A stretch of DNA of 32,000 nt from Ktedonobacterales bacterium (GCA_030167145.1 CP126532.1:330001-362000); one strand, 5' to 3'. Numbered from the stretch's first letter, positions 2,346 through 30,376 are shown. Translations and numbers: made by a program. The notes: generated from the sequence alone by a model not told the origin.

Positions 2346-3682
2346 ATGGCGCTGCGGTCAACGCTGGCACTCTATGCCTACACGTCGCCCACGGGCAGCG
2401 CGTATCCGCCGCTGGCACATGAGTACGGCGAGGCCATCGAGGCCCTGGAGTTTACGACGGTCGCGCCAGGGGGCTTCGGTGATCTGGCCTGTATGCTCAA
2501 ACTGCGGGATGCGCGTTTGCCAAGGCCGGAGCTTGGCTTATTCTCGCGCGTGGCGCTGCGGGATGGGCTGTTCACCTGCTTTAGCGGGGAGTGGTCGGAC
2601 CCGGCGCTGGTGCTGGACGGGACGCATGGCGGATTGGGCGATTACGTGCTGCTCTCGGCGCTCGGCGGTGGCGTGGCCTTGCGGGATGACCCGGATGATA
2701 GCGCGTATACGACACAGACCGCGCAGGCGATCATCGGCGCAGAGTTCTCGAAACGCGCGGCGAATCTCGCGCTGGACGCGGACCAGTCGGCGGTGCTGCC
2801 CACGGCGCCTGCCTCGACCTTTTCGCCCATCTACGATGGCTACACCCTGGAAGAGATCTGCCATGACCTCGCCTTCGACCTGGGCGATTACATGTGGGTG
2901 GTCTATGAGCATCCCAAGAATAGAGACAGCGCGGGCTATCCCACATGGCAACTCCGCATGCACCCACGAGATACACAGGCGACGACGTACATGGCGCTCG
3001 GTAGCGATATCCTTTCGTGGCGCGTGCAGCCGTCGCAGCAGCGGGCCTACAACGTGGTGCAGGTGGCGTATGTGGACGTGAGCGGTGGGCCAGCGACGGT
3101 GACGGTGTCGGGGTGACGGTGTCGGATGCGCGGTTAGCAGTCGGTGGGGGGCAGGGCAGCGCGCCATTCCAGCGAAGAAAGCTGCGCAGAAGTTTGGGCA
3201 AGAGTCCACTGACGGGCGCACAGGCGACGGCGATAGCCAATGCGTGGCTGGCGGCGTATAGCAATATCACGAATAAGGTGGAGGTGGAACTGCGGTCGGT
3301 GCGGGATGCGAATGGGCGGGCGCTGCCGCTCCATCAGGTGCGGGCGGACGGCAACCTGTATGTGCCGGAGTTGGCGGTACGCGGACAGCAATTATCGAGC
3401 GGGCCGGTGGCGGGCACCAATCAGTTTTACATCGTCGAGACGGTGTACAAGGAGACGGCGGCGGGTGACGTGCGCTTGGTGTTGCACCTGGACAATTACG
3501 CGGATGCGGTGGGGGCGGAACTGGCGCGGCTGAAGCTGGCGTATGACGCGGCGAGCCGGGCACGGGGACGTACCGGCAGCCGATCTCGCCAGGTGTGCCA
3601 GTGGTCGGCGGCTGCGGGGAATGCTGCGGCGGGCATGCCCATCACTGATGAGGAAGACGTGGCGACAGGCAACGACCAGTAG
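2346..3682 (+). pseudogene. phage-associated structural-like protein (about 440 aa if repaired), split by a 14-bp tandem duplication
   Basis: ORFs 2298..3116 and 3017..3682 join into one continuous frame (..GPATVTVSDARLAVGGGQG..) when one copy of GGTGACGGTGTCGG is removed. GGGAGGG RBS precedes the ATG at 2346. Confidence 0.6.
3098..3125. repeat. perfect 14-bp tandem duplication, GGTGACGGTGTCGG x2
   Basis: Read directly: copies at 3098-3111 and 3112-3125. Confidence 0.95.
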
Positions 3683-3707
3683 GGCAAGCAAGGACGGCGG
3701 CACCGAC

Positions 3708-4391
3708 ATGGCAAACATGACAGACAAGGCGAAGCAGCTACAGCCCACAGAAGAAGGAAGCGTGCAGCAGCATGCGGCCACGGAGGATCTGCGTGCGCGG
3801 GTGTGGGAGCTGCATTTGCGCGGGGCGACGAAACGGCGGATTGCGGAGGTGGTGGGGGTTCACCGGCAGACGGTAGGGCGCTGGTTGGCGGCGGGATATG
3901 CGGAACTGGAGGCGGACCGCAAAGCGCGGCAGAAGCGGCTGTTGGTGGCGGCGGTGGCGCGGATGCGACGGGTGCAGGAGCAGGCGTGGGATGACCACGA
4001 TGCCGACGATGCGCGCGAGCAGGCGGTGCTTGATGCGGCCCTCTTCGGAACGGCTCAGAGGGGCCGCTCTGCGGCGCTCAGTGTGGCGGCAACGTCAGAG
4101 GGGAACGATGAGAGAGGCGGCGGCGGTGTTCAGGGGATACGCTTGCAATCGCAGCGAGCGCAATACCTGCGGGTGGTGCTGGACGCCGAGAAGGAGATTG
4201 CGCGGCTAGAGGGGCTGTACGAGGCGACAGGGGATGAGGGCGCGGCGGTGTCGTTCGTGGTACTTCGGGATGATGGGGGAATCCATGGGAGCCGTCTGAC
4301 GGCCAGCGTGGGGCTGCTCAGGGGCAAACGGGGCGCGGGTAGCTCAGGTGATGGCGCAGATGGCGGCGGGGAATCCGACGATGGTGAGTAA
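3708..4391 (+). CDS. terminase small-subunit-like HTH protein
   Basis: N-terminal HTH (RRIAEVVGVHRQTVGRWL) followed by a helical region. It sits immediately upstream of and overlaps the large terminase gene. The ATG at 3708 follows the stop of the preceding gene. Confidence 0.5.
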   Translation: MANMTDKAKQLQPTEEGSVQQHAATEDLRARVWELHLRGATKRRIAEVVGVHRQTVGRWLAAGYAELEADRKARQKRLLVAAVARMRRVQEQAWDDHDADDAREQAVLDAALFGTAQRGRSAALSVAATSEGNDERGGGGVQGIRLQSQRAQYLRVVLDAEKEIARLEGLYEATGDEGAAVSFVVLRDDGGIHGSRLTASVGLLRGKRGAGSSGDGADGGGESDDGE

Positions 4392-5748
4392 ACGTGCGGG
4401 TGTGCGGCGTCAGCGGGCTGCTCACGAGGCTATGAGCCGGAAGCGGGAACTGTTGCTCAATCCGAAGCAGTACGATTTCGTGTTTAGTGAGGCGCGGTTC
4501 AGCTTCTATGTGGGGGGTATCGGCGCGGGCAAGACGTATGCGGGGGCGCTGCGGGCGCTGTTTGCGGCGCAGCAGATGCCCGGGTCGCTGGGGCTGGTGG
4601 GCGCCCCCACCTATCCGATGCTGCGAGATGCCACACAGCGGACGTTCTTCGCGCTCTGCCCCGACGCGCTGGTGCGCTCGTGGAACAAGACCGAGCAACA
4701 TCTGGTGTTCACCAATGGGAGCGAGATACTGTTCAGGAGCATGGACGCGCCCGATCGGGTGCGTGGGCTGAATCTGGCGTGGGCCTGGCTGGATGAAGCG
4801 CCGCTCTGCGGACACTACGCCTGGCAACTGCTCAAAGGCAGATTGCGGCAACCAGGGTTTGCCACGAGCGTGTGGGCGACGGGGACGCCGCATGGTCGAG
4901 ATGGCTACGCGCGTGACTTCGAGTTGGAGCCGCGGGAGGGGCATGCGCTGTATCGGGCTTCGACCAGGGAGAATGCGCGCAACCTGCCGCCAGGGTTCAT
5001 CGAGGACTTGGGGTATACGGGTCAGTTCGCCGCGCAGGAGATCGAGGGTCAGTTCGTCGCGTTCGAAGGGCTGGTGTATAGCTTCGATGCCGATGCCACG
5101 GATGGCAATATCAGGACGTGGCCGGCCACCAGCGCAGACTTCCGCAGCGTGGTGGGTGGCATAGATTGGGGCTACACGAATCCAGCGGCGGCGGTGGTGT
5201 TCGGGCTGGATGGGGACGGGCGAGCGTGGCAGGTGGACGAGTTCTATCAGCGGCGGGCGGGGCTGGAAGAGACGGTGCTACCGGCGATTGTGGCGCTCAC
5301 ACGGCGGCATGGGGTGGCGCGGTGGTATGCGGACAGCGAAGACCCGGAGGCGATAGACCGGCTCAACGCGGCGCTGGCGAAGGAGGGGTTGCAGACACGG
5401 GCGCGGGCGGCGGTGAAGGGGGCTGGCAGTGTGCGGGCAGGGATCCAGACGGTGACGGGATTGCTCTCGAAGCGGGGAGATGGCAAGGGAGGATACACAC
5501 GGGGATTGTACGTGGATGGGCGGTGCGTGAACACGATTGCGGAGTATGGCACGTATGCGTATGCCACGGTAGATCGGGCGAAACGGGATGCGTCGGAGGA
5601 GCCGCTGAAGCAGAGCGACCATGCGCTCGATGCGAGCCGGTATGCGCTGCATGGGGAGTTGGCGGGTGCGGCGAAGACGGAGGCGTACTTGGCGGCGATG
5701 GCTCAGCCACTGCGGCGAAATATGAGTGAGGAGGTGGTGAGGCAATGA
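4348..5748 (+). CDS. terL: phage terminase large subunit
   Basis: Walker A (YVGGIGAGKT) and Walker B (LAWAWLDEA). RNaseH-like nuclease motifs (GGIDWGYTNPAAAVVFGLD, YADSEDPEAIDRL, SDHALDASRYAL). An alternative ATG start is at 4381. Confidence 0.9.
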   Translation: MMAQMAAGNPTMVSKRAGVRRQRAAHEAMSRKRELLLNPKQYDFVFSEARFSFYVGGIGAGKTYAGALRALFAAQQMPGSLGLVGAPTYPMLRDATQRTFFALCPDALVRSWNKTEQHLVFTNGSEILFRSMDAPDRVRGLNLAWAWLDEAPLCGHYAWQLLKGRLRQPGFATSVWATGTPHGRDGYARDFELEPREGHALYRASTRENARNLPPGFIEDLGYTGQFAAQEIEGQFVAFEGLVYSFDADATDGNIRTWPATSADFRSVVGGIDWGYTNPAAAVVFGLDGDGRAWQVDEFYQRRAGLEETVLPAIVALTRRHGVARWYADSEDPEAIDRLNAALAKEGLQTRARAAVKGAGSVRAGIQTVTGLLSKRGDGKGGYTRGLYVDGRCVNTIAEYGTYAYATVDRAKRDASEEPLKQSDHALDASRYALHGELAGAAKTEAYLAAMAQPLRRNMSEEVVRQ

Positions 5749-29600: not shown

Positions 29601-29626
29601 GAGGCACAGGACGGAGGCACGGGGCG
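29601..29626. repeat. 13-bp tandem duplication, GAGGCACAGGACG / GAGGCACGGGGCG (11 of 13 identical)
   Basis: Read directly. Removing 13 bp restores ..DDRRPVPRLVRRLFGKLFGDRGY... Confidence 0.8.
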
Positions 29627-29969
29627 GCGGTCATCCACGTTGCCGGGGGTGAGGCAGACGGCCAGCAGTTCGCCGCGGCCATTGACCACCAGATGCAACT
29701 TGAAGCTGTAGAACCCGCCGACCGAGGTCTTGCCGCGTCGCGCATCGGCCCGAAAGACGCGGTGCTGCGAGATGTGCGCATTGTGGCAGACGTGCAACGC
29801 GGTGGAGTCCACAAAACTCAGGTTGGTACATGACCCCAGTTGGGGGTATGCAGGTAGACCGCCAGCGGCAGCACCACGCGCGGCAGGAGCGCGACAAAGC
29901 GGGTGGAGCTGACCAACTGCGGAAACTCGGCGCGCAACTGGACCTGAACCTGTTGCGTAGAAAAGCCCT

Positions 29970-29991
29970 TGAACGTCCGGTGAACGTCCGG
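29970..29991. repeat. perfect 11-bp tandem duplication, TGAACGTCCGG x2
   Basis: Read directly. Confidence 0.95.
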
Positions 29992-30376
29992 TAGCCCGAC
30001 TGCTGAAAGAGAATCAAGATGGTCATGATCTCACTCGGACGCAGTCGGGTCACACGCTTGCGCCGCCGCTTCCCTGCGGCGACCAGTTCGCGTTCCCAGA
30101 GCGGCGCAAACTGCTGCCAGAACGTATCCACCGAACAGTACAGGTCGAGTATACTCATGCTAATGCCTCCGGGTAGGGACTGATGGGTCGGGATAGACCG
30201 CATCATATCCCTGCCGTAGGCATTTCGCTTATCCAGAATTCACGTCGTGTTATTCTTGGCGCAATCTGCCCCTTGACAAAGCAATGCGTTCAAGGCATTC
30301 TTGTCGTGAGCGATTCCGGGAGCGATTCCGAGGCATTTCGAATTGAGGGATGCGCCGCGAGAGTGAAGGGGGCAGC

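Follow-up and report, generated by a model that had tools for sequence, protein, structure and literature searches.

The 32,000 nt of DNA analysed here (hereafter the window) come from a Ktedonobacterales bacterium (GCA_030167145.1, CP126532.1:330001-362000) and carry several mobile elements whose genes are broken by short tandem duplications (TDs). A TnpB gene lies across the left window edge (332 aa, in the left flank L172), followed by a decayed prophage at 600-9400 with small terminase-like, large terminase and GNAT genes. Further along are an intact pair of KAP NTPase and STAND genes (11897-16560, minus strand), nested IS5-like and IS701-like elements (16749-19111) and a set of intact chromosomal genes (19206-26767). 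The gene for tRNA-Trp (26943-27021), which was the sole Rfam match in an Rfam search, borders a decayed island that reaches to ~30340 and includes integrase, excisionase-like and IS982-like genes. Beyond ~30340 lie a LacI-family regulator and a sugar-transport operon. An earlier reading of the window, which we call the original prediction, had named five duplications that frameshift mobile-element genes in this region, and all five were found where it had placed them.

The leftmost of the five is a perfect two-copy repeat of the 14 bp sequence GGTGACGGTGTCGG at 3098-3125 (plus strand), which frameshifts a baseplate-hub-like gene of the prophage. The gene remnant (2358-3571, plus strand) once encoded a phage protein of 495 aa, a baseplate hub or a tail-associated protein, and ~90 C-terminal residues have been lost from it. 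When one 14 bp copy is cut, the open reading frames (ORFs) 2298-3116 and 3017-3682 are fused, and the fused product aligns without gaps to eight homologues of ~494 aa; the stretch VSGGPATVTVSD is identical in the two closest of them. Searches by tblastn with the proteins of two related loci (L166 and L169) matched the region in two frames, with the match ending at about residue 405. The protein had no sequence match in Pfam or PHROG, and we used an AlphaFold model of an intact homologue (pLDDT 76) for structural comparison with Foldseek. The model matched a baseplate chain of phage Mu (9ki1_G, E = 5.5e-12) and the Mu gp44 hub (1wru, 5e-11, probability 1.0), with further matches to the hubs of diffocin, pyocin R2 and VgrG and to viral minor tail proteins. 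Judging by this modelled fold, which resembles that of phage baseplate hubs, the label of prophage gene that had been given to the host gene of this duplication is correct. The family of ~494-aa predicted hub proteins shows 56-79% identity across the 120 matches listed (P0121-P0240), many of which are on Ktedonobacterales contigs, and a scan of IMG/VR with the hub protein returned no relative. In most loci seen (L166, L169, L176 and L177), one or two small ORFs come before the hub gene, which in some relatives has few other phage-like genes around it. The hub family may be a domesticated tail-like module.

Two of the five duplications are found in the nested insertion sequences. The IS5-like element (16749-17659, minus strand) has terminal inverted repeats and a TAA target duplication, and its transposase gene is frameshifted by the 11 bp array CGGCGGCAGAT (3.09 copies at 17406-17439, minus strand), in which two extra copies add 22 nt. 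Deletion of these two copies restores LPHDLPPWQTVYYYF, a motif that is conserved in 16 of 16 aligned homologues. The reconstructed protein is gapless with 16 homologues through the conserved motif LPHDLPPWQTVY and matches the family model NF033580 in one stretch (1-256 of 258). The gene has a second lesion, a 1-nt deletion near 17250, within GGPRGYD. A programmed frameshift was considered for this gene and rejected, since all 120 homologues among the matches listed are single proteins of typical length that contain both domains. Intact IS5 paralogues of the same genome were sought with a metagenome scan and a protein search, which gave nothing closer than 63-72% identity; the ancestral state was thus drawn from homologues and not from sister copies. 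The IS701-like element (17663-19111, plus strand) has the inverted repeat TATTACAGTTGCAGTTA and a CTAA target duplication. Its transposase gene is frameshifted by a perfect two-copy repeat of the 14 bp sequence CGAGAACTGCCAAA at 18125-18152 (plus strand), and cutting one copy yields an uninterrupted ORF of 395 aa that matches NCBIfam NF033540 over its whole length (1-363 of 363, 470 bits). With tblastn, the reconstruction has single-piece matches over 93-99% on many plasmids; no Ktedonobacteria replicon of the plasmid collection was among the matches listed. The 14 bp TD is the sole lesion found in this element, the inverted repeats and the CTAA duplication of which are intact. The nesting of the two elements can be read at 17660-17662, where the IS5-like element landed in the TAA of the left CTAA copy of the IS701-like element.

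The remaining two duplications affect the same gene. The IS982-like element (29234-30245, minus strand) is bounded by 19-nt inverted repeats and has accumulated two TDs and two 1-nt deletions. Its transposase is frameshifted by a perfect 11 bp repeat of TGAACGTCCGG (2.09 copies at 29970-29992, minus strand) and by a 13 bp repeat in two copies that differ by two transition mismatches (29601-29626, minus strand). Once one 11 bp and one 13 bp copy are cut and the two 1-nt deletions are bridged, the protein matches NF033520 in one stretch (3-242 of 243). The NF033520 match over residues 58-291, again in one stretch, crosses the junction of the 11 bp TD, and both NF033520 and PF13612 cross the 13 bp junction in single stretches after removal of one copy. 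The imperfect 13-mer is not significant alone, as we estimate ~0.65 such chance matches per period per window; both of its diverged copies encode RPVP, each in its own frame.

As a set, the five cases behave alike. Cutting the extra copies restores the frame in each of them, as judged by gapless alignment to intact homologues or by a full-length family model, and homologues or family models span every junction with one copy, so that the single-copy state is ancestral in all five, as had been proposed. None of the reconstructions has an in-frame stop codon. In the three IS genes, the integrase gene and the hub gene, we counted five TDs that break the frame and five deletions of 1 nt, an inventory that was partly deduced from reading frames; TDs make up about half of the lesions that shift the frame of these mobile-element genes. 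All frameshifts in the IS5-like, IS982-like and integrase genes that are not due to TDs are 1-nt deletions (~17250, 27350-27900, ~29380 and ~29830). Several of these deletions sit in short homopolymer runs, which are also typical of errors in long-read assembly. If the 1-nt deletions were such errors, TDs would be the main true lesion.

The duplications that break genes belong to a larger set. We counted maximal perfect tandem repeats with a period of at least 9 bp, since shorter periods are masked by chance matches, and estimated the chance expectation from 200 order-3 Markov simulations of the window. This resulted in 14 perfect TDs compared to ~0.26 expected by chance, and each of them belongs to an IS element, the tRNA-Trp island or the decayed prophage; Tandem Repeats Finder (TRF) added several near-perfect repeats. 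About ten TDs (at 870, 1654, 1886, 2047, 8101, 8665, 8712, 8717, 8795 and 27553) were not on the predicted list. The in-frame and non-coding relatives that were on this list are likewise present. They include a 12 bp repeat in 3.25 copies that encodes (HPHP)n in frame within the intact GNAT acetyltransferase gene (7157-7195, minus strand), and one in 2.9 copies that encodes (VLLS)3 in frame at the C-terminus of the decayed tyrosine integrase beside tRNA-Trp (27115-27149, minus strand). Another 12 bp array, in 8.17 copies (28956-29053, minus strand), encodes (AETI)8 and forms most of a 57-aa ORF (28907-29080). The 45 bp repeat (2.13 copies at 28463-28558, minus strand) is in frame at the N-terminus of the excisionase-like HTH_17 gene and has 6 nt of junction microhomology, and a non-coding 12 bp repeat (1.9 copies at 30308-30330) lies between the end of the IS982-like element and the LacI-family gene. 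The additional TDs are found in the integrase remnant, where a 13 bp repeat (1.9 copies at 27553-27577, minus strand) leaves a frame that reads through, and in the decayed prophage. There, an intergenic cluster of four TDs at 8665-8824 has periods of 11 (2.09 copies), 9 (2 copies), 11 (1.9 copies) and 10 bp (3.1 copies, imperfect), and a perfect 9 bp repeat in two copies lies in a gene-poor stretch (8101-8118). Two-copy repeats of 9 bp at 870 and of 8 bp at 1654 are non-coding, and 9 bp repeats at 1886 (2.1 copies) and 2047 (2.3 copies) are in frame within small ORFs that are conserved in relatives.

To place these counts, we extended the sample to the window plus 17 kb of flanks, that is, 49.1 kb or ~1% of the 5.07 Mb genome. 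It contains 15 TDs with a period of at least 9 bp. All of them map to prophage, IS or island DNA (~15.4 kb) or adjoin an IS110 element. The one that adjoins IS110, a 16 bp repeat in 2.44 copies, is in a small ORF next to an IS110-family transposase gene in the right flank (L173 20820-20858, window 41169-41207). Intact chromosomal genes had been described as free of frame-breaking duplications, and this holds for the extended sample: none with a period of at least 9 bp was found in ~34 kb of intact genes in the window and its flanks. A search with the TnpB protein gave no match from the same contig and thus no further loci of this genome. Among species-representative genomes, the nearest acetyl-CoA synthetase (ACS) loci are those of Ktedonobacteria, with 74-76% identity.

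Where TDs survive was clearer in relatives. We examined 76.7 kb from four Ktedonobacterales loci in which gene calls are intact and 16% of the sequence is intergenic, and counted 40 TDs. Eighteen of them are inside genes and have a period of 9, 12 or 15 bp, all multiples of three. The one exception inside a gene is an 11 bp array in 2.9 copies, which spans ~33 nt. The remaining 21 lie between genes or at the edge of one; among them are all TDs with a period of 10, 13, 14, 16 or 19 bp and every other 11 bp array. Core contexts are affected too, as TDs are found in a penicillin-binding-protein gene and in intergenic DNA of the mraZ-ftsI region of L176. This distribution is what a process acting everywhere leaves under purifying selection, and frame-breaking TDs are visible in genes of the window because those genes are dispensable. 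The concentration of TDs in mobile-element genes is thus largely a selection filter. Since the frame-breaking periods of the relatives are almost all intergenic or at gene edges, there is no need for a process targeted at mobile-element genes. In one relative (L177), the phage-like cluster contains a 12 bp array in 11.4 copies that takes up nearly a whole small ORF (18614-18862), with further long arrays of period 12-19 bp nearby, and a type I-E CRISPR-Cas locus adjoins the same cluster.

The abundance of TDs is a property that this genome shares with its order. Pooled over six Ktedonobacterales genomes (161 kb), we counted 61 TDs with a period of at least 9 bp or 379 per Mb, compared to 100 TDs or 53 per Mb in 1.87 Mb of other bacteria. 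The latter set consists of 78 ACS loci, 80 metagenome contigs with IS5 elements, four IS-rich plasmid regions and two phage contigs; within it, the surroundings of IS5 elements amount to 0.30 Mb and the IS-rich plasmid DNA to 164 kb. The two phage contigs are distant phages from a terminase scan of IMG/VR and serve as negative controls only. Chloroflexota outside of the Ktedonobacterales had 16 TDs in 251 kb (64 per Mb). For periods of at least 10 bp, the ratio between Ktedonobacterales and other bacteria is 10.1 (p = 1e-18). Mobile-element DNA of other taxa is not enriched in TDs, with 54 per Mb around IS5 and three TDs in 164 kb of plasmid DNA. The claim of a distinct mutational process thus stands in part: the TD-rich regime is real, but it belongs to the lineage and not to mobile elements.

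The proposed narrow size class of 11-14 bp was not borne out. Periods of the Ktedonobacterales TDs are 9 (27 TDs), 10 (4), 11 (10), 12 (9), 13 (1), 14 (3), 15 (3), 16 (2), 19 (1) and 45 bp (1), so that 60 of the 61 are between 9 and 19 bp. In all, periods between 8 and 19 bp and one of 45 bp were seen, and the shape of the spectrum is that of the background in other bacteria. That the five predicted duplications are all of 11-14 bp is explained by the fact that out-of-frame periods are the ones that break genes.

The junctions bear on how the first duplication arises. Among the 47 two-copy events, a microhomology of 0, 1, 2 and 3 nt was found in 19, 9, 6 and 3 cases, compared to 25, 13.5, 5.4 and 1.9 expected without microhomology. 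For ~80% of the two-copy events, junction microhomology is thus near chance, which argues against slippage between pre-existing direct repeats as the main source of the first duplication. No motif was visible by eye at the 19 unambiguous junctions. Arrays with 3-11 copies account for 14 of the 61 TDs, and such arrays show that slippage acts after the first duplication.

We conclude, with a probability of about 0.65, that these are ordinary de novo short TDs of ~8-20 bp, rarely longer, which arise across the Ktedonobacterales at ~7-10 times the level of other bacteria and are then subject to expansion by slippage and to a selection filter. According to this scenario, a short stretch would be copied head to tail, mostly without flanking microhomology. 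The likeliest route would be repair or replication synthesis associated with nicks or flaps, for instance strand displacement or fill-in at close nicks followed by religation, which would put the TDs in one class with the repeat-independent TDs of 2-19 bp of the Escherichia coli topA R168C mutator; fill-in of staggered nicks or breaks, which had been suggested before, remains a live candidate for this first duplication. Replication slippage then takes some of the two-copy repeats to 3-11 copies, as the arrays show. Lastly, as the distribution shows, selection purges frame-breaking TDs from useful genes; those that survive lie between genes, at their ends or in genes that are dispensable for the host. 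In the window, these dispensable genes are the three IS transposase genes and the prophage baseplate-hub gene, in which roughly one in two inactivating frameshifts is due to a TD. Publications on Ku/LigD in Chloroflexi were also searched, with nothing usable.

Several observations weigh against this conclusion. The molecular step of the first duplication is the part that we infer. The distribution of junctions has a tail, as an extra match of at least 4 nt occurs in 10 of the 47 two-copy events compared to ~1 expected; this tail is a microhomology-mediated minority or consists of partial third copies, and it includes the 45 bp duplication. Furthermore, a Vicinamibacteraceae locus reaches 365 TDs per Mb, so that the trait is not unique to Ktedonobacterales. 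The relatives also show a bias that coding constraint alone does not explain: phage-like segments have 2.65 TDs per kb of intergenic DNA and 0.48 per kb of genic DNA, whereas core flanks have 0.81 and 0.12 per kb, respectively (p ~0.01, for a small sample with segment boundaries that were drawn post hoc). An approximately threefold phage-like excess remains, also within intergenic DNA. Lastly, ~1% of the genome was sampled, and the other Ktedonobacterales loci were reached via a phage-like or an ACS gene and are thus a non-random sample. Within the background set, two loci from metagenome-assembled genome (MAG) contigs of Vicinamibacteraceae and Acidobacteriota (L018 and L065) had 365 and 900 TDs per Mb, and other soil lineages may share the duplication-rich regime.

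The phage-like excess is what a process aimed at mobile elements would produce, in which staggered nicks or breaks are made in foreign DNA and the overhangs are filled in and joined. A defence nuclease, a nuclease of the TnpB or Cas12 type or an abortive transposase attack would be candidate cutters; there is a TnpB gene at the start of the window, and the type I-E CRISPR-Cas locus lies beside the phage-like cluster of L177. Every TD of the window is in prophage, IS or island DNA, the phage-like segments of the relatives have ~3 times the TD density of core flanks, intergenic DNA included, and microhomology is absent at most junctions, as fill-in and blunt joining predict. However, TDs of the relatives also occur in the core contexts described above (the penicillin-binding-protein gene and the mraZ-ftsI region of L176), and even the 0.81 per kb of intergenic core flanks is still far above the level of other bacteria. 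The size spectrum is broad and shaped like that of other bacteria, no motif was seen by eye at the 19 unambiguous junctions, and the mobile-element DNA of other taxa lacks the enrichment (54 per Mb near IS5 and three TDs in the 164 kb of plasmid). We thus consider a targeted process unlikely. Selection for reversible off-switches would also place TDs in transposase genes, if a duplication that silences an element and can collapse to one copy is favoured. The IS701-like element, the ends and ORF of which are intact apart from one perfect 14 bp TD, fits such a switch, and in fission yeast TDs revert at a high rate (PMC8639346). TDs of this kind are nevertheless common in non-coding DNA, where a switch is pointless, and the IS5-like, IS982-like and integrase genes also have 1-nt deletions, that is, they are decaying; this explanation is accordingly quite improbable. 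Phase-variable repeats of the contingency-locus type were rejected as well, as the TDs are mostly of two copies, occur in genes unrelated to one another as well as in spacers, and are most abundant in decaying elements.

Excision footprints, which had been another candidate, turned out to fit poorly, and we consider them very improbable. Here, a cut-and-paste element with a target duplication of 9-14 bp would have left cleanly, and both target copies would have been kept. Perfect two-copy repeats without microhomology do fit clean excision and end joining, and mobile-element DNA tolerates insertions, but the IS elements of the window duplicate only 3-4 bp (TAA for the IS5-like and CTAA for the IS701-like element). 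Moreover, periods are continuous from 8 to 19 bp with 45 bp in addition, 14 of 61 arrays have 3-11 copies, including the 11 bp array in the IS5-like transposase, no target consensus was seen by eye, and the same spectrum is found at low density in unrelated bacteria. The least probable explanation, to which we give hardly any weight, is an artefact of long-read metagenome assembly or sequencing. The contig is 5.07 Mb long and hence probably built from long reads, and the 1-nt deletions that accompany the TDs, several of them in short homopolymers, are typical of long-read errors. To our knowledge, however, no sequencing error mode creates perfect 11-14 bp duplications de novo. An independent assembly, perhaps of the same sample, provides a 4.2 kb Logan contig (L002, run SRR22113990) that matches window 17631-21847 at 100% identity and contains the 14 bp TD at 18125. 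Five other Ktedonobacterales assemblies, which differ in source and assembler, show the same excess of TDs, and it is absent from the 1.87 Mb of similarly made MAG and metagenome contigs. Independent assembly support for the other TDs was sought by looking up a 76-aa ORF and P0205, which gave a JGI contig only, and a 78-aa ORF, for which there was no record.

Some further features of the region were observed along the way. The Logan contigs L002 and L004 end at 17631 and 26972, which is 29-30 nt inside the end of the IS5-like element and inside tRNA-Trp. These ends could reflect a branch of a k=31 assembly graph; if so, the sample would also include variants from which the IS5 insertion or the island is missing, or further copies of these sequences. 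A search for att repeats of the tRNA-Trp island found none. The gene for the KAP-family P-loop NTPase overlaps the STAND gene (955-995 aa; DUF4062 / NB-ARC / TPR) by 4 nt, and this pair at 11897-16560 (minus strand) adjoins a Peptidase_M78-like/HTH pair at 10203-11700. The KAP/STAND genes are likely a defence pair. To the immediate left of the window, the flank (L172 1-8236, contig 322346-330581) contains a TcA-like ABC toxin gene of >3,400 aa, after which come an Arc-like ORF and the 332-aa TnpB. The TnpB homologues of Ktedonobacterales in the database have highly variable lengths of 175-328 aa, which may reflect widespread truncation.

The origin of tandem repeats in non-repetitive sequence is a matter of debate, with microhomology slippage, flap processing and topoisomerase- or nick-linked repair as proposed routes. 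An order with an approximately tenfold excess of young, perfect and mostly microhomology-free TDs would be a natural test system for this question. For practical work, a frameshift in a Ktedonobacterales MAG ought not to be written off as an assembly error; many 'split' genes could be rescued by annotators who check the break for a TD, and reversion may be possible for some silenced IS copies. If the pattern only reflects relaxed selection on a common class of mutation, it would be a useful calibration and not a discovery.

Among known systems, the topA R168C mutator of Escherichia coli is the nearest documented analogue, as it produces repeat-independent TDs of 2-19 bp that are clustered in hotspots and cause frameshifts, and for which the authors point to nick-associated repair (PMC6954433). 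Both the range of sizes and the absence of microhomology at the junctions agree with the TDs described here. However, topA R168C is a laboratory mutant with a defined substitution in topoisomerase I, whereas the present pattern is natural and lineage-wide, so that any link would be by resemblance only. It is possible, though doubtful, that the Ktedonobacterales regime is a lineage-specific and largely microhomology-independent natural counterpart of this mutator, with an extra phage-like bias, and a leading route by which transposases and prophage genes are silenced, leaving some elements, such as the IS701-like copy, one reversible step from reactivation.

TDs of at least 8 bp have been reported to be universal in microbes, and the same preprint argues that microhomology and the processing of Okazaki flaps dominate TD formation across life and finds that 50-60% of the TDs in reference genomes are without microhomology (bioRxiv 10.64898/2026.02.28.708716). 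Microhomology-mediated tandem duplication (MTD) was described in fission yeast (PMC8639346) and is claimed to be universal (bioRxiv 10.64898/2026.02.28.708716). Like MTDs, the TDs analysed here are of at least 8 bp, arise from single-copy sequence and later become multi-copy, have in-frame lengths favoured in genes and may be revertible. Unlike MTDs, ~80% of the two-copy events are at chance microhomology, and an origin by microhomology looks plausible for the 45 bp duplication (6 nt) and a minority of the others only.

End joining by bacterial Ku/LigD is a route by which fill-in can create duplications. Plant paired-nick work, as far as it is cited in PMC6954433, describes duplications at offset nicks. 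Such fill-in resembles the present case in that the duplications are free of microhomology and have the length of the nick offset, which limits them to one or two helical turns, and it differs in that the arrays of 3-11 copies seen here need an extra slippage step. Target-site duplications left as excision footprints share the short perfect direct repeat with nothing between the copies, but the lengths observed here vary, copies are often more than two and the IS elements of the window duplicate 3-4 bp. Lastly, out-of-frame duplications of at least 11 bp in pneumococcal capsule genes switch the gene off and can be precisely lost again. In that system, switching is the selected trait, whereas the TDs described here show no sign of switching or of selection for it.

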